Shown: in pieces, positions 42 through 10,000 of the stretch | Layout of the letters: every line of letters begins with the position of its first letter | How positions within the stretch are numbered: position 1 is the first letter of the stretch | Source of the DNA: a virus | Taxonomy: Monodnaviria > Loebvirae > Hofneiviricota > Faserviricetes > Tubulavirales | IMG/VR virus record: IMGVR_UViG_2667527591_000022 | Direction: 5' to 3' (one strand) | Length of the DNA stretch: 10,187 nucleotides | Program-made: the position numbers and the translations under genes | Notes under the pieces: model-generated | The model's input: only the letters and a program-made list of their open reading frames with translations | Told to the model about the DNA's origin: nothing | Databases searched by the model: none

Positions 42-1367
42 CCTCTCTGTTCATCCGTCAGACCTGCCAGTCCGGCAGGCAGGTGCAGTACATGGAAACA
101 AAGCACGGATTAAGCTGCGGTGCACACTACAGGGGAGCACGCTGTCAGCCATCAGTTTCATCAACAGGCAATTCCATCGCCTGTACGCGTCGGGTTCTGC
201 ACAGCCAGTAAGCTGGTTGCCTATGTCAGCAAAGAGCATAAGTGCCCGAAGCAGGCAGCAGAGCGTAAGTGCGCGGGGCCGGTAATGGTGCCTTTCCGCT
301 TCCTCGACCACTCGCTCACTGCGTTCGGTCGCTGGGTCTGCGGCGAGCGGTGCCATCACACGCGCAACTGAAGCATTCTGCCTCTCTGTTCATCCGTCAG
401 ACCTGCCAGTCCGGCAGGCAGGTGCAGTCCATGGAAACAAAGCACGGATTAAGCTGCGGTGCACACTACAGGGGAGCACGCTGTCAGCCATCAGTTTCAT
501 CAACAGGCAACACCATCGCCTGTACGCGTCGGGTTCTGCACAGCCAGTAAGCTGGTTGCCCATGTCAGCAAAGAGCATAAGTGCCCGAAGCAGGCAGCAG
601 AGCGTAAGTGCCCGGGACCGGTAATGGTGCCTTTCCGCTTCCTCGACCACTCGCTCACTGCGTTCGGTCGCTGGGTCTGCGGCGAGCGGTGCCATCACAC
701 GCGCAACTGAAGCATTCTGCCTCTCTGTTCATCCGTCAGACCTGCCAGTCCGGCAGGCAGGTGCAGTCCATGGAAACAAAGCACGGATTAAGCTGCGGTG
801 CACACTACAGGGGAGCACGCTGTCAGCCATCAGTTTCATCAACAGGCAACACCATCGCCTGTACGCGTCGGGTTCTGCACAGCCAGTAAGCTGGTTGCCC
901 ATGTCAGCAAAGAGCATAAGTGCCCGAAGCAGGCAGCAGAGCGTAAGTGCCCGGGACCGGTAATGGTGCCTTTCCGCTTCCTCGACCACTCGCTCACTGC
1001 GTTCGGTCGCTGGGTCTGCGGCGAGCGGTGCCATCACACGCGCAACTGAAGCATTCTGCCTCTCTGTTCATCCGTCAGACCTGCCAGTCCGGCAGGCAGG
1101 TGCAGTCCATGGAAACAAAGCACGGATTAAGCTGCGGTGCACACTACAGGGGAGCACGCTGTCAGCCATCAGTTTCATCAACAGGCAACACCATCGCCTG
1201 TACGCGTCGGGTTCTGCACAGCCAGTAAGCTGGTTGCCCATGTCAGCAAAGAGCATAAGTGCCCGAAGCAGGCAGCAGAGCGTAAGTGCCCGGGGCCGGT
1301 AATGGTGCCTTTCCTCTTCCTCGACCACTCGCTCACTACGTTCGATCGCTGGGTCTGCGGCGAGCGG
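42..1367. repeat. Direct tandem array of a 339-bp unit, about 3.9 copies; copies 2 and 3 are identical, the outer and phage-proximal copies carry a few substitutions
   Basis: Units recur at +339 (e.g. cctctctgttcatccgtcagacc at 42, 381, 720, 1059). The ORF track shows identical translations repeated at 339-nt offsets on both strands. Array ends at ...ctgcggcgagcgg (1367), 13 nt before the pI stop codon. Confidence 0.95.
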
Positions 1368-1380
1368 AGTGTCCTCTGTC

Positions 1381-2592
1381 TTATTTACCATTCACATCAA
1401 ACGAAAGCATTTTGTCAGTCAGCACATCCCCCTTTGATGCCGTTCCCGATGAGCCTGACCAGAACGTCACTTTTTCACCGTCAACATTCAGTTCCGTGGC
1501 GCTGCCGTTCCATGGCTGAAAAGCGGTATAACGTCGCACCTGACCCGCCGGACCCAGCAGCACAAAATAAGGACTTGCTCCCCTGACATATCCAGCAAGC
1601 CGCCACTCCTTTGATACCGGAAGCACATCCGGTTTTTTCTGTCTCAGCTCTGATACAACCGTAGACGCAGGCAAAGGATGTGCAGGTGTCACGGCGCTTT
1701 CAGGCACAGGAGGGACAGCGGCACTAACCTCCCGATCGCCGGAGAAATAATGTCGGGCAACGGCAATCATCGCGGTGACGAGGAAAAGAAAGGCAATCAG
1801 CTTGCCCCACGGCTTTTTCTGTGAGGTGGCCTTTTTTTCGGGTTGTTGAGATAACGGATTCATTGTTTTAAGTGTGCGCCCGGGCAAAACAGAATAAACA
1901 GCACGCATATCCACAAAACGGCCATTAAGCAGCTCCATTCCGTCAGAGAAAATGAAATTAGTGTCGTAAACGTTGTAATAATCCGCAGCCCTGATAATGA
2001 TTTTATCTACGGGGCGACGTGCCGCGTGAATCGTGCCGTCATAAAGAAACGTACTGGCAGCCACGTAATGAGGAATAATCCCCCTTTTGCCTGATGCAAC
2101 CCCTGTTTTTCCTGGTCTGAATAATTCCATCAGTGGCGTAATCACAGGAACACGTAATTCATCAAGACGGCGGCAGCGAATAATTTTAGCCCCCATCGCC
2201 TTAATTATCTGGGAATCAATCATATCTTCATGCTGCGCAATCAGATAAACATCCCAGCCCAGCTTACGGGAATGTATCAGCCAGTCAATTAACGGTAATC
2301 TGTCCTTACGGGCAAAACCACGGGTATTCAGCCATGTCGCACACTCATCAAGAAATAACGCCCCGAAGCGTGTTTTTTCATTTTCAGGGCATCCACGACC
2401 AAGAAGCTCAAAGTCTTCAATGCGGGGCATAGCCGGAATAACCGTAACGGGGTTATCCGAACCTGAGGACATATATTCAGTGTTAAGCGGAAAATTTGCC
2501 GCAACCCGTAATCCACGGCGATAATAAAGTGAGGCAAAATAAGCTGCGACAATACCTTTACCCTGCCCCAGATTACCCGTGATAACTGGCAT
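1381..2592 (-). CDS. Filamentous-phage assembly/morphogenesis ATPase (pI / Zot family)
   Basis: N-terminal P-loop TGNLGQGKG closely parallels M13 pI TGKLGSGKT; central hydrophobic segment [15 protein letters not shown] as in pI/Zot; ATG at 2592 preceded by GGGGT; position after the pVI-like gene as in Ff. Confidence 0.85.
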
Positions 2593-2608
2593 AACTTACC
2601 CCGCAAAA

Positions 2609-2968
2609 TTACTTGCCAACATTAAGCCCATTTGATTTAAATAAATCATAAACCAATCGATACACTCTATCCTTATAAAGATATATGTATGAAATAAATT
2701 GAACATGGAGGATGATATTAAAGCAGTACTGAATATTTAAAGGCAGGTAACTGAATGCAACTACAATAACATCGAGTTTATTAACATCGGAGATTTGACG
2801 AATAATAAAATTGACGGCAGATACAAGAGCATAATATGAAGTGTAGCAAAGACCAAGATAAGAAAGGAGCTTAGCCCATGCAACAGCTTTATCACCGATA
2901 ACTCCTGCAATGAAACGTAGTGATTTTAAAACAACATCAACAAAAAAAGCACCTAAAATGGCCCACAT
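2609..2968 (-). CDS. pVI-like minor virion protein (hydrophobic, 119 aa)
   Basis: Size and hydrophobicity match Ff gene VI (112 aa); sits between the pIII-like gene and pI; its ATG overlaps the pIII stop (TGATG); GAGGT Shine-Dalgarno 9 nt upstream. Confidence 0.55.
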   Translation of the reverse strand: MWAILGAFFVDVVLKSLRFIAGVIGDKAVAWAKLLSYLGLCYTSYYALVSAVNFIIRQISDVNKLDVIVVAFSYLPLNIQYCFNIILHVQFISYIYLYKDRVYRLVYDLFKSNGLNVGK

Positions 2969-8002: not shown

Positions 8003-8098
8003 CAGTGCGCACAATGACGTTATGTATAAAAAGGCCGCTGCGGTGGAGAGTATCGCAGCGGCCTTTTCAACATAACGCGTGTCACATTATGCGCACTG
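8003..8098. other. Imperfect 96-bp inverted repeat whose arms resemble the XerC and XerD half-sites of dif; candidate folded attP(+) site
   Basis: Left arm aGTGCGCAcAA-tgacg-TTATGTataaa (8004-8030) against dif GGTGCGCATAA-TGTATA-TTATGTTAAAT; right arm in inverse orientation ttcAACATAA-cgcgtgtcaca-TTATGCGCACt (8065-8097). 8003-8016 pairs with 8085-8098 (13/14) and ttatgt (8020-8025) with acataa (8070-8075), leaving a bulge in the central region. Confidence 0.5.
8029..8067. terminator. Bidirectional rho-independent terminator
   Basis: Perfect 14-bp stem aaaaggccgctgcg / cgcagcggcctttt with 11-nt loop; A-run upstream and T-run downstream, so it reads as stem plus U-tract on both strands; downstream of the secretin on the minus strand and of the regulator on the plus strand. 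Confidence 0.55.
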
Positions 8099-8150
8099 AC
8101 GTTGTGGTAGGTAAACTGAGATGCCGCGTCCTGATAATCCCGGTCGGCAC

Positions 8151-9359
8151 TCAAACTTTTTTGACCTGTAACAGAATAACCATATCCGTGCGGCTCTTCT
8201 CGTCAGACTTCTGACTCCAGCTCTTTGGCAGAAATGATAATCCTGTGTTGGCCTGCGAATCCTTGTTTTCTGCCAGACCACCCAGCAACACAATATCGCC
8301 ATCTTTCAGAGTCAGCGACGTATCCACCTCACGCTTGAGCAACGTTGGCGAATCATTCACGCCCGTATCCGTTTTGACAAAGTTACTTAACTGCTGATTG
8401 ACGTTCAGGCTGATACGCGACGACGTGATAACCGGCTTAACTTTGAATATCACCCCCGAATCACGATACGTCACGGACTGAACGGCTTTACCATCCTCAT
8501 AAGACACGCTGCCAATAACCGGAACCTGTTCACCAACAGAAAACGTCGCTTCCTTGCCTGAATCCATGCGCAGCTGTGGCGCGGATACCACCTTAAAGCG
8601 GTTATCTGTTCTGAACAGTTCATACATCGCATTCAGCGTACCGGAGCTGAATGAAATGTAATTCCCCATCGAGGATGAGGAACCCACGCTGACACCAAAA
8701 CGCCCTGATAACAGTTTTGCAGCCAGTGCCAGCCCCGAACCTTCAGAGCGCCCTGTCTGCACCTCATAAATATACCCCGTTACCACAACCCCCTGAGCCG
8801 GAACATCAACCAGTGGAACCAGCTCCTTAAGGCGTGCCAGTTCTGAACGTGTCCCCCTGAAAACCAGTGAATCCCCCTCACCTGATAAGAATGAGCCGGA
8901 AGTTACCGGAGAAGATGCAACCGCATTCTCTGAAGATACCTGTGATGAACGCCCTGTCGTTGTACCCGAAAGCACGGCGGCAAGATAAGCTGGCGAACGG
9001 TTAAATGGTGTATATACCCATGAAACCAGTTTTTCCGGCGCAGCCACGGGTTTAAACGAGCGATAATGATCCACGCCATTACGAGTCTCAACAGAAATAT
9101 TCAGTTGTCTGAGCCAGCGCACATACTCTTCACGCTGTTTTTTCTGATCGCCCGTCAGACTTAAGTCCAGCGTCACCGGACGGGTATCGCTGGCAAGTTC
9201 AGGCGGCAACGCATACTGACGCCTGAAAATATCTTCCTGAGCCAGCTGTATCGCTGCATTGAGCGGAAGACGGTCAACAAAAAAGGCCGGAGACGAGGCA
9301 TGCACAGACGCCGAAGTCAAAAAAAGAAATGCTGTCAGTAAGTTAATCAATCTCATCAT
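8151..9359 (-). CDS. pIV-like secretin (outer-membrane export channel for filamentous phage)
   Basis: Signal peptide [21 protein letters not shown]; C-terminal secretin-like region ...[23 protein letters not shown]...VILLQVKKV comparable to M13 pIV; 402 aa. Confidence 0.8.
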
Positions 9360-9397
9360 GTTATACCGTTAAGTGCTGTTTTTCAGTCATGAAGATA

Positions 9398-10000
9398 TTC
9401 CGCTTCCTCGACCACTCGCTCACTGCGTTCGGTCGCCGGATCTGCGGCGAGCGGTACCACCACACGCGCAACTGAAGCATTCTGCCTCTCTGTTCATCCG
9501 TCAGACCTGCCAGTCCGGCAGGCAGGTGCAGTCCATGAAAACAAAGCGCGGATTAAGCTGCGGTGCACACTACAGGGGAGCACGCTGTCAGCCATCAGTT
9601 TCATCAACAGGCAATACCATCGCCTGTACGCGTCGGGTTCTGCACAGCCAGTAAGCTGGTTGCCTATGTCAGCAAAGAGCATAAGTGCCCGAAGCAGGCA
9701 GCAGAGCGTAAGTGCGCGGGGCCGGTAATGGTGCCTTTCCGCTTCCTCGACCACTCGCTCACTACGTTCGGTCGCTGGGTCTGCGGCGAGCGGTGCCATC
9801 ACACGCGCAACTGAAGCATTCTGCCTCTCTGTTCATCCGTCAGACCTGCCAGTCCGGCAGGCAGGTGCAGTCCATGGAAACAAAGCACGGATTAAGCTGC
9901 GGTGCACACTACAGGGGAGCACGCTGTCAGCCATCAGTTTCATCAACAGGCAACACCATCGCCTGTACGCGTCGGGTTCTGCACAGCCAGTAAGCTGGTT
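9398..10000. repeat. Second direct tandem array of the same 339-bp unit, about 1.8 copies, same orientation as 42-1367
   Basis: Starts at ttccgcttcctcg (9398), 38 nt upstream of the secretin ATG, and ends at ...ccagtaagctggtt (10000). Repeated ORF translations in the track match those of the left array with a few substitutions. Confidence 0.95.

Follow-up and report, generated by a model that had tools for sequence, protein, structure and literature searches.

A tandem 339-bp repeat between gene I and gene IV of a dif-integrating inovirus: a probable plasmid-type complementary-strand origin

Background

Several inoviruses that integrate at dif and form tandem prophages, among them CTXphi, YpfPhi/CUS-1 and UPphi, carry an attP that is a forked hairpin formed from two inverted dif-like sites. 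UPphi is a relative of IKe and I2-2; its tandem copies are collapsed in short-read assemblies, and no repeat array has been described for it (PMC7307601). In the Ff phages and IKe, the minus-strand origin follows gene IV within the large intergenic region and consists of stem-loops primed by host RNA polymerase. M13 or f1 phage deleted for this origin can reportedly be rescued by cloned plasmid ssi signals, as is said to have been found by Nomura and Ray in 1980 and in later ssi screens. Reviews locate the ColE1 signal of this kind, n'-pas/ssiA, close to a DnaA box and on the strand that Pol I displaces as it extends [PMC3167613 and PMC3640518].

The window examined here (10,187 nt, the entire contig CCCK01002538.1 of assembly GCA_000944435.1) contains an inovirus with the same kind of attP, bracketed by tandem arrays of a 339-bp unit. 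The repeat is a component of the phage, a dif-integrating inovirus of E. coli and Citrobacter in which it occupies the intergenic slot between gene I and gene IV; its core is probably a plasmid-type substitute for the complementary-strand origin, and its presence at both ends probably comes mainly from the contig wrapping around the phage genome.

The phage genome between the arrays

The arrays enclose a complete inovirus whose minus-strand genes encode Rep (Phage_GPA), a pVIII-like protein, pIII, pVI, pI/Zot and the pIV secretin. It has the core gene set of the Inoviridae in the conserved order and on a single strand (PF05840, PF05357, PF05707 and PF00263; phrog_91, phrog_1944, phrog_1675 and phrog_1012).

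1381..2592, minus strand: gene I, pI/Zot-type assembly ATPase, 403 aa (PF05707, phrog_1675)
2609..2968, minus strand: gene VI-like minor coat protein, 119 aa (phrog_1944 and gene order)
2968..4332, minus strand: gene III attachment protein, 454 aa (PF05357)
4384..4626, minus strand: pVIII-like major coat protein candidate, 80 aa including signal peptide (position and sequence character only)
5415..7415, minus strand: replication initiator, P2 gpA-family HUH nicking endonuclease, 666 aa counted from the ATG (PF05840, E=8e-49; phrog_91, E=1e-128)
8002..8099, minus strand: CTXphi-type attP, two inverted dif-like sites forming a forked hairpin in the viral strand (inverted repeats, ssDNA fold)
8151..9359, minus strand: gene IV secretin, 402 aa (PF00263, phrog_1012)

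This gene order places the circular join between gene I and gene IV, as the preliminary description had it. The Gly/Ser-rich linker of gene III is encoded by 39-nt repeats (3464-3715), and the major coat candidate finds no family match in Pfam-type or PHROG profile searches. Within the GenBank phage collection, no nucleotide match extends beyond about 180 nt at 70%. The attP arms (8002-8016 and 8085-8099) form nested stems, and the ssDNA fold has an energy of -40.9 kcal/mol (z=-10.3). Like CTXphi-type phages, relatives of the window phage show attP/dif junctions (AGTGCGCATAATGTATATTATGTTAAAT, with ydeP-ydeR or hipA as neighbours) and tandem prophages near dif, features of CTXphi-type XerCD/dif integration; the replication protein, however, is of the P2 gpA family, unlike that of the CTXphi-type phages named above. 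In this contig the attP is unrecombined, and its intact hairpin plausibly fits either a replicative form or a tandem junction.

Structure of the 339-bp arrays

Each 339-bp unit consists of a 57-nt core and a 282-nt spacer. In this phage lineage a core stands at both ends of the array, so that n spacers are accompanied by n+1 cores.

42..1367, minus strand: left tandem array, three full units (starting at 42, 381 and 720) followed by unit positions 1-309 (Tandem Repeats Finder, BLAST of one unit)
9398..10000, minus strand: right tandem array (1.8 copies), unit positions 253-339 (9398-9484), one full unit (9485-9823) and positions 1-177 (9824-10000) (repeat finder, BLAST of one unit)
294..350, minus strand: core copy 1, 57 nt, ColE1 n'-pas-like, unit positions 253-309 (plasmid homology)
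633..689, minus strand: core copy 2, 57 nt (plasmid homology)
972..1028, minus strand: core copy 3, 57 nt (plasmid homology)
1311..1367, minus strand: core copy 4, 57 nt, which ends the left array, with the stop codon of gene I 13 nt away
9398-9454 and 9737-9793, minus strand: right-array cores

The preliminary description had reported same-orientation arrays of about 3.9 and 1.8 copies, richer in GC than the phage genes and interrupted by stop codons in all frames, and these statements hold. Tandem Repeats Finder gives the left array (42-1367) a period of 339, 3.9 copies and 98% matches, and a repeat finder and BLAST of one unit place the right-array copies in register with the left and in the same orientation. 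The GC fraction is 0.591 and 0.589 in the arrays, versus 0.477 in the phage block. Individual units differ from one another at 0-8 positions (units 381-719 and 720-1058 are identical), a likeness that far exceeds chance. Each period has stops in every one of the six frames, and no open stretch exceeds 112 codons. Since the units of different phages are separated by 1-nt indels, the array is non-coding; a tandem-repeat protein is ruled out by these stops and indels and by a 107-aa ORF that lacks any family match. No promoter or terminator consensus is seen in the array.

Distribution of the array

In the closest complete genomes the phage is present in head-to-tail tandem copies with one array apiece, and the array is likewise internal to the phage in E. 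coli genomes assembled from long reads, whose tandem prophages lie near dif. Both the tandem prophages of E. coli 100416 and the phage on a Citrobacter youngae plasmid have one array per phage copy, located in the gene IV/gene I interval and with the same phase (unit positions 253-339, 1-339 and 1-309). Four IMG/VR contigs and three metagenome contigs show the array in this interval as well, and a Proteus plasmid also carries it inside an inovirus. A second inovirus lineage, whose genes are only 68-70% identical, has an array that is 90-93% identical, here between gene IV and traX/gene I. Indeed, every full-unit match sits within an inovirus in one of these intervals. The search for the unit apart from the phage that had been proposed earlier finds no phage-free array among plasmids, E. 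coli genomes, IMG/VR or metagenomes, and it is the related phages that carry the repeat. A 20-mer invariant across all units has no match in 185,579 species-representative genomes, and the spacer is carried by only 9 of 5,426 complete E. coli genomes, all of the inspected ones holding it inside inoviruses. A dispersed or tandem host repeat (REP/BIME-like or satellite) is thereby excluded.

The 57-nt core and the ColE1 primosome assembly site

The core region is matched by 3,392 plasmids (ColE1-like) at 80-95% identity. Plasmid p7 has the core in the rop-ori interval, downstream of ori at 119-175 nt from the GTTTTTCCATAGG motif, close to a DnaA box (TTATCCACA) and on the RNAI strand. By sequence comparison, then, the core is homologous to a ColE1-plasmid segment in the place attributed to n'-pas/ssiA, the PriA-dependent primosome assembly site of ColE1/pBR322 (phiX174-type): the homology covers 57-80 nt at 79-92% identity, and the plasmid segment is situated downstream of ori, near the DnaA box and on the displaced strand. 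This segment is probably the mapped n'-pas, given its position and orientation, general statements in reviews and the pBR322 literature.

The strand assignment is consistent with such a site. Because the core shares the sense of RNAI in plasmid p7, the strand of RNAII sense, which is the displaced one, is equivalent to the minus strand of the window. That minus strand is the phage coding strand and is therefore the viral strand, an equivalence confirmed by how the IKe homology is oriented in the sister phages. Thus the active-strand sense of the core is that of the packaged (+) strand, which, as with n'-pas, is the strand that exists as ssDNA in the phage. The minus (viral) strand would accordingly be the functional strand of the arrays. 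In addition, the viral strand carries GAAGCGG, a motif of n' sites. These features suggest that the core may use PriA as an n'-pas-type site. Sites of that type are defined by stimulating the PriA ATPase and by supporting rifampicin-resistant priming of SSB-coated ssDNA that depends on PriA, PriB, DnaT, DnaB, DnaC and DnaG. Unlike ColE1 n'-pas, the phage element lies between gene I and gene IV in 2-6 tandem copies, and its cores are separated by a 282-nt spacer that ColE1 plasmids do not have.

A possible core hairpin has support from covariation. In L032 and L034 both arms are swapped for complementary sequences (GTTTAT/ATAAAC), and four pairs are altered on both sides, with 0-4 of 500 shuffles reaching the observed values, although few independent events are involved. 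Wobble counts fail to discriminate between the strands, and the minimum-energy helix of the core was searched for covariation and has none. The ssDNA fold is no better than that of shuffled sequence for the core (z=-0.75) or the whole unit (z=-0.41). The covarying hairpin presumably cannot form in the pBR322 sequence.

The gene I-gene IV slot

In the relatives TD225-C4 and EC12, which lack the core, the same slot holds a two-hairpin element (ssDNA fold z=-4.96). This element is homologous both to f1 5655-5750 and to IKe 6334-6457, a stretch for which the GenBank entry of IKe gives minus-strand origin stem-loops. Homology to the Ff/IKe minus-strand origin (IKe 6333-6438; f1 about 5655-5750) is present in this slot in the sister phages L040 and L041 and defines the function of the slot, while no match to an Ff/IKe-type minus-strand origin is found anywhere in the window (E<=1e-4). 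Across all phage loci examined, the core and the Ff-type origin are mutually exclusive: none has both and none has neither. Because sister phages hold the IKe/f1 homologue in the slot, the window element is the positional equivalent of that origin, presumably with the same job, and the array is best read as a variable-copy, plasmid-type complementary-strand origin cassette. The two elements have no sequence similarity, and the slot lies between gene I and gene IV rather than in the large intergenic region after gene IV.

The origin function that we infer for the core would proceed as follows. After entry or rolling-circle synthesis, the single-stranded core, substituting for the phage complementary-strand origin, would fold and recruit the host PriA primosome, in place of the host RNA polymerase used by Ff/IKe; the primosome would then prime the ssDNA for conversion to the double-stranded replicative form. 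The concept is that of the M13/f1 rescue constructs, in which a ColE1 strand-initiation sequence replaces the phage complementary-strand origin; those are engineered, whereas the window phage would represent a natural replacement that has been tandemly amplified. As for the earlier proposal that the repeat is an intergenic or origin module belonging to the phage, the n'-pas-like core and the equivalence of the slots favour it and make it more specific, but the accompanying analogy to Ff miniphage does not stand. Miniphage and other defective interfering genomes share with the window phage the tandem duplication of an origin-containing segment; however, all genes of the window phage are intact, which excludes a genome of that class, and its array is stably inherited in the prophages of several strains and in two lineages.

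The contig ends

The source assembly is a short-read assembly and very fragmented (contig numbering exceeds 2,500), and other short-read assemblies break, or hold an N gap, within the 339-bp array. Both ends of the window are host-derived.

1..43, no strand given: left flank, 43 nt from the terminase large-subunit gene of a P2-like prophage (100% match with terminase genes of P2-like phages)
10000..10187, minus strand: right flank, the first 26 codons of bssR and 110 nt upstream (bssR cut off at the array junction)

The preliminary description, made without knowing that the window is an entire short-read contig, was correct in placing arrays at both ends but did not recognise that 43 nt at one extreme and 187 nt at the other derive from two unrelated host loci. 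The left flank and first unit overlap by 2 nt (CC), native terminase sequence departing from the contig after ...GCGGTCC, and the bssR/array junction has a microhomology of 0-1 nt. The ends do not make one continuous unit: the right array stops at unit position 177 and the left begins at position 1. In a window that consists of one entire contig of so fragmented a short-read assembly, neither the copy number nor the host junctions are reliable. Hence of the assembly artefact named earlier as a possible refutation, only this much applies: the array itself is genuine, but this contig gives no trustworthy copy numbers or end structure.

Alternative explanations

Had the phage entered an array of the 339-bp unit already present in a host or plasmid, as offered by the preliminary description, arrays on both sides in this single contig and the higher GC of the repeat would be accounted for. 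This reading is refuted by the distribution given above, with the array internal in tandem prophages and viral contigs, the invariant 20-mer missing from the representative genomes and all full-unit plasmid and E. coli matches within inoviruses; together with two unrelated loci outside the arrays, this leaves the idea scarcely credible. More deserving of attention, yet still improbable, is a functionless, satellite-like expansion of captured plasmid DNA, amplified by slippage, with the minus-strand origin elsewhere, e.g., in the attP hairpin. The free range of copy number (0 to at least 3 spacers), the rarity of the spacer among complete E. coli genomes, the unexceptional ssDNA fold of the unit and the lack of promoter or terminator consensus would all suit an element of this kind. 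Against it, at least one core is present in every examined phage that lacks the Ff-type origin, the arms of the core hairpin are replaced in a compensatory manner, the array is far better conserved between lineages than the surrounding genes, and the window has no other detectable Ff-type origin.

The bracketing arrays are explained, in the preferred reading, by a short-read assembler that would have walked round tandem or circular phage DNA and halted in the unresolvable repeat. That the window is a whole short-read contig, that attP is intact and that other short-read assemblies break in the array all support such a wrap, which is probably the main source of the bracket; with tandem copies in the nearest complete genomes, the earlier suggestion that this is the edge of a tandem prophage array also remains plausible. 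Pure wrap-around does not explain everything, leaving the discontinuous unit, the host ends and the recurrent bssR junction unaccounted for. A lesser but real chance belongs to a true illegitimate integration, in which the phage or a tandem run lies in the chromosome, flanked by bssR and a P2-like terminase gene that are each truncated, and each breakpoint falls in the array; the array would then be a break- or recombination-prone region and the bracket a true genomic structure. Junction microhomology of merely 0-2 nt indicates that shared k-mers did not create the junctions, a second assembly repeats the bssR/array junction with the identical contig end, a de Bruijn assembler that meets a repeated prophage gene might leave a tail of about 43 nt, and two random breakpoints are unlikely both to fall within a region that is 8-15% of the genome. 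However, no genome among the 5,426 complete ones of E. coli spans the junction on the terminase or the bssR side, both junctions are missing from IMG/VR and the JGI metagenomes, the genomes seen do not have bssR next to the terminase gene, and the left flank is just 43 nt. Moreover, the sister contig that shares the bssR junction carries a 146-nt stretch in triplicate, which is implausible, along with an internally deleted gene IV, and its assembly mixes strains, as it has two different host flanks beyond dif. Chimeric reads, which preferentially extend an assembler stalled in a repeat, would be enough to put both junctions in the array.

Copy-number variation

The number of spacers per array ranges from 0 (L004, L005, L032-L035) through 1 (L023/L024) and 2 (L001, L002, L010, L011, L015) to 3 (L014), and the core is retained at all of these loci whatever the number. 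The array may arise, grow and shrink by recombination or slippage between cores. The 282-nt spacer is itself 90-93% conserved between the two phage lineages.

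Repeat arrays and gene content of the phage

The 339-bp unit recurs in the same orientation on either side of a complete set of inovirus genes, all of which lie on the minus strand. The preliminary description of both arrays holds: Tandem Repeats Finder returns the left one with a period of 339, 3.9 copies and 98% matches, and a repeat finder together with BLAST of one unit places in-register copies at the right. The features are:

42-1367: left array; full units from 42, 381 and 720, then unit positions 1-309
1381-2592, minus strand: pI/Zot (gene I)
3464-3715, minus strand: 39-nt and 78-nt tandem repeats encoding the Gly/Ser-rich linker of pIII
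5415-7415, minus strand: Rep, P2 gpA family
8002-8099: CTXphi-type attP, a 98-nt forked hairpin with two inverted dif-like sites, AGTGCGCACAATGACGTTATGTATAAA and AGTGCGCATAATGTGACACGCGTTATGTTGAAA
8151-9359, minus strand: pIV secretin (gene IV)
9398-10000: right array; unit positions 253-339, a full unit at 9485-9823, then 1-177
between the arrays, minus strand: pVIII-like coat protein
between the arrays, minus strand: pVI

Units within the window differ from one another at 0-8 positions, and two of them are identical. The arrays are, as had been noted, richer in GC than the phage block (0.59 vs 0.477 between the arrays), and each period carries stops in all six frames, so that a repeat protein is excluded. 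Protein coding by the unit was also considered and set aside: the sequence is implausible, and because single-base, frameshifting indels separate the units of different phages and the 102-107-aa open reading frame on the phage strand has no match in Pfam or PHROG, the array is taken to be non-coding. A scan of the entire window against Rfam at E<=1 gave chance-level matches only, promoter and terminator scans of the array gave counts no higher than the chance expectation, and a search of the unit against the phage collection matched only vector or plasmid-like records. A XerCD or cer-like site in the unit was dropped as a candidate, given that no XerD-arm-like sequence is present.

The internal att-like site mentioned earlier proves to be the CTXphi-type attP, whose single-stranded fold has a z of -10.3; the recombined junction between phage and E. 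coli dif in relatives reads AGTGCGCATAATGTATATTATGTTAAAT. The phage is a member of the Inoviridae and a CTXphi-type dif integrator. It has no close counterpart in the GenBank phage collection, and the UPphi group known from E. coli is not close to it either.

The array belongs to the phage

E. coli 100416, whose chromosome sequence is complete, carries a phage 98.5% identical to the window as head-to-tail tandem copies adjoining ydeP-ydeR, in the dif region. There is one array per phage copy, located in the gap between gene IV and gene I and consisting of unit positions 253-339, 1-339 and 1-309. The same arrangement is found in a Citrobacter youngae plasmid, four IMG/VR contigs and three metagenome contigs. 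A 20-mer invariant across units has no match in 185,579 species-representative genomes, and the start of the unit occurs in only 9 of 5,426 complete E. coli genomes. It had been proposed that the phage was inserted into a pre-existing host or plasmid array; this is refuted, because plasmids, E. coli genomes, IMG/VR and metagenomes yielded no array without the phage. When a tandem or circular element is assembled from short reads, arrays at both ends of its contig are not evidence for insertion into a host array. Classification of the array element as miniphage, tandem-repeat protein or host-encoded repeat was rejected.

A second inovirus lineage, which carries traX and an IS110-family recombinase, has the repeat between gene IV and traX/gene I. 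Its genes are only 68-70% identical to those of the window phage, whereas its repeat is 90-93% identical to the window array, which suggests either that the array moved laterally in recent times or that the whole unit, spacer included, is under strong constraint. Insertions of this lineage are found at dmsA-dmsB, at gatY-gatZ and close to iprA, as well as in a Proteus IncC plasmid.

Array boundaries show how the unit is built. In the lineage of the window they are constant, always starting at unit position 253 on the gene IV side and ending at 309 on the gene I side; those of the second lineage differ, with a start at 193 or 211 and an end at 146 (loci L003, L006, L007, L025 and L026). Relatives that lack the repeat (L004, L005 and L032-L035) keep exactly unit positions 253-309 in the intergenic region, and the unit therefore consists of a core of 57 nt and a spacer of 282 nt, such that n spacers give n+1 cores. 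Relatives have 0, 1, 2 or 3 spacers, and the left array of the window has at least 3. The core is always retained while the number of spacers varies, a pattern that agrees with growth and shrinkage of the array through recombination or slippage involving the cores. The spacer is strongly conserved between lineages.

A complementary-strand origin slot

Insight into the intergenic region comes from the phages of E. coli TD225-C4 and EC12, close relatives whose genes are 90-94% identical to those of the window and which lack a core in the gene I-gene IV interval. Instead, they contain a 176-nt spacer (7725-7900 of locus L040) with two strong hairpins on the viral strand (z=-4.96). In viral orientation, this element is homologous to IKe 6334-6457, to f1/M13 5655-5750 and to Erwinia PEar phages; in the IKe GenBank record, 6333-6385 and 6410-6438 are annotated as the stem-loops of the minus-strand origin. 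Each phage locus gathered has either a core of the plasmid type or an Ff-type origin, and none has both or neither. In this phage family, the slot for a complementary-strand origin is thus the gap from gene I to gene IV. The comparison with TD225-C4 and EC12 is decisive: the window phage fills the slot with a plasmid-type cassette. The array element is accordingly a positional equivalent of the Ff/IKe minus origin but not its homologue. The earlier proposal of a phage-borne origin module amplified as in Ff miniphage is upheld by the slot comparison as far as an origin module is concerned; the likeness to Ff miniphage falls away. Nomura and Ray reportedly expressed a ColE1 strand-initiation sequence in a single-stranded phage in 1980, and the cassette of the window phage mirrors those experiments.

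The Ff-type element is also present in 1,502 plasmids, from cryptic ones of ~1.9 kb to others of ~60-150 kb and always in unannotated DNA; it may serve enterobacterial plasmids as a single-strand initiation signal. The 2,760-bp E. albertii RepL plasmid pEA18_5 (L042) has both elements, in opposite relative orientation, with identities to the phage versions of 97% (pas-like core) and 97.9% (Ff-type element). The cassettes could have come from this plasmid or been passed to it.

Relationship of the core to ColE1-like plasmids

Matches to the core region, at 80-95% identity, occur in 3,392 plasmids, most of them small mobilizable ColE1-like plasmids; the whole unit is matched in the plasmid search only by two phage-bearing plasmids. 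A more sensitive alignment lengthened the homology, in one plasmid, to ~135 nt (unit positions 190-323). Plasmid p7 (NZ_CP067429.1) has the core in the interval from rop to the origin, 119-175 nt past the ori motif GTTTTTCCATAGG and near a TTATCCACA DnaA box, and RNAI is located 567 nt from it on the same strand. This geometry equals that of pBR322. Since Rfam RNAI went undetected in two of the three plasmids examined, the plasmid geometry rests on p7 and on pBR322. On the viral strand, GAGGAAGCGGAA forms the end of the core; an AAGCGG motif is common to n' sites.

In ColE1-type replication, extension by Pol I from the RNAII primer exposes a signal for assembly of the primosome, n'-pas/ssiA, with a DnaA box close by (PMC3167613; PMC3640518). 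The displaced strand is RNAII-sense, the complement of the RNAI-sense strand, and therefore corresponds to the minus strand of the window. The coding strand of inoviruses is the packaged (+) strand, and as minus is the coding strand of this phage, the core has the orientation that an ssi signal in virion DNA requires. The core thus has a homologue in the ColE1 segment located where n'-pas/ssiA is placed, and from this position we infer that the segment is probably n'-pas/ssiA, which the array element would also resemble in its proposed action, through putative recognition by PriA.

Folding energy by itself is no evidence for or against a structure in this DNA: the single-stranded core is unremarkable (z=-0.75), and core and whole unit fold no better than shuffles. 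In an alignment of 20 distinct core variants, one helix, pairing columns 15-19 with 43-47, has four pairs that changed on both sides, and in the repeat-less relatives L032 and L034 both arms are replaced (GTTTAT...ATAAAC). Another pair occurs as A-T, G-C and G-T in different variants. The observed covariation values were reached by 0-4 of 500 shuffles, and slid controls were much lower. The minimum-energy helix has no covariation and cannot form in L032 or L034. Counts of wobble pairs did not distinguish the folding strand. Taken together, these comparisons provide moderate evidence for a conserved hairpin in the core.

Proposed mechanism

In the mechanism we propose, the core would fold on (+) single-stranded DNA and be recognised in this form by PriA, and a PriA-PriB-DnaT-DnaB/C-DnaG primosome would then prime complementary-strand synthesis; priming may become more efficient with extra cores. 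Our broader reading, offered tentatively and with somewhat less than even confidence, is that this inovirus family has swapped an RNA-polymerase-primed minus-strand origin for a plasmid-derived, PriA-dependent pas of the ColE1 type, that tandem copy number (from 1 to at least 5 cores) tunes the conversion of single-stranded DNA to replicative form, and that Ff-type and pas-type cassettes circulate among thousands of plasmids. If so, ssi signals would form a pool of exchangeable modules common to filamentous phages and plasmids. Going further, the array might also be where phage DNA preferentially breaks as it inserts illegitimately into host sequences such as bssR and a P2 prophage.

To our knowledge, filamentous phages other than Ff and IKe have poorly defined complementary-strand origins. 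The present family offers a natural side-by-side comparison, in which a single slot in near-identical phages holds either an IKe/f1-type or an n'-pas-like cassette with 0 to several repeats. It thereby makes testable the reliance of a natural inovirus on the PriA restart primosome, the effect of origin copy number and the freedom with which ssi signals are exchanged between phages and plasmids.

Origin of the contig ends

The window is an entire contig (CCCK01002538.1, 10,187 bp) of the un-annotated assembly GCA_000944435.1, in which contig numbers exceed 2,500. Positions 1-43 are a 100% match to a P2-like terminase large-subunit gene, and 10000-10187 comprise the first 26 codons of bssR and 110 nt upstream, with junction microhomology of 2 nt at the left and 0-1 nt at the right. 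Neither the terminase/array nor the array/bssR junction is spanned by any of 5,426 complete E. coli genomes, and neither is present in IMG/VR or the JGI metagenome set. Other short-read assemblies of the phage stop, or have an N gap, inside the array. We favor an assembly origin for the bracket: attP being intact, the assembler would have followed phage DNA in tandem or circular form and become stuck in the repeat, while the short host tails are maybe extensions from chimeric reads. Thus, of the statement that arrays bracket the phage, the arrays are real and the bracket itself is largely a product of linearisation of the contig. We conclude that the array in the window is real and that the copy numbers and end structure of this contig are unreliable.

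A real illegitimate junction between host and phage is an unlikely alternative, although one with some observations in its favor. The repeat is not in phase at the two contig ends (unit positions 177 vs 1), and a second assembly, GCA_000936715.1, has a 1,610-bp contig (L018, CDQW01002605.1) with the bssR/array junction and an identical contig end. Beyond this junction, L018 has a 146-nt gene IV segment three times with scattered mismatches, then an internal gene IV deletion that jumps to the 3' end of the gene, and then the phage/dif junction; this contig is a misassembly or else a defective copy that was rearranged. The second assembly has two different host flanks beyond the phage/dif junction (the second being L015) and therefore contains more than one strain. 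Excision by Rep from origin to origin was rejected as the source of the ends, whose phases differ (unit positions 1 vs 177).

Other contig ends fall at particular points. A metagenome contig (L016:1-45) opens with Nextera adapter sequence, which is fused to the unit at a CCTGCCGGACTGGCAGG palindrome. L017 and the sequence after the gap in L008 both begin there too, and the palindrome is therefore a favoured break for short-read assemblies. The pIII linker repeats (3464-3715) are the end point of several short-read contigs of relatives.

Other features of the phage

Direct and inverted TGCAATTGTGCA-like repeats are clustered at 7441-7520, immediately upstream of the rep start; the cluster could be an operator or a plus-strand origin region. 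The longest rep reading frame (699 aa, from a TTG at 7514) crosses this cluster; the called gene starts at an ATG at 7415 (666 aa). Between rep and attP, a 62-aa open reading frame on the plus strand (7563-7751; phrog_2503, function unknown) is kept in relatives and may encode a small regulator.

Both in relatives of the window phage and in the second lineage, an IS110-family recombinase is located directly upstream of rep: in L004 and L005 (E. coli O166:H15, where it is annotated as an 'RNA-guided transposase') and in L003, L006, L007 and L020. Phages with this gene occupy intergenic sites within operons (ybiB-hcxB, dmsA-dmsB and gatY-gatZ) as well as a Proteus IncC plasmid, and more than one chromosomal site is used in at least one genome (L003 and L006, both in NZ_AP027790.1). 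The integration module thus appears to be swappable, being either a XerCD/dif hairpin or of the IS110 type.
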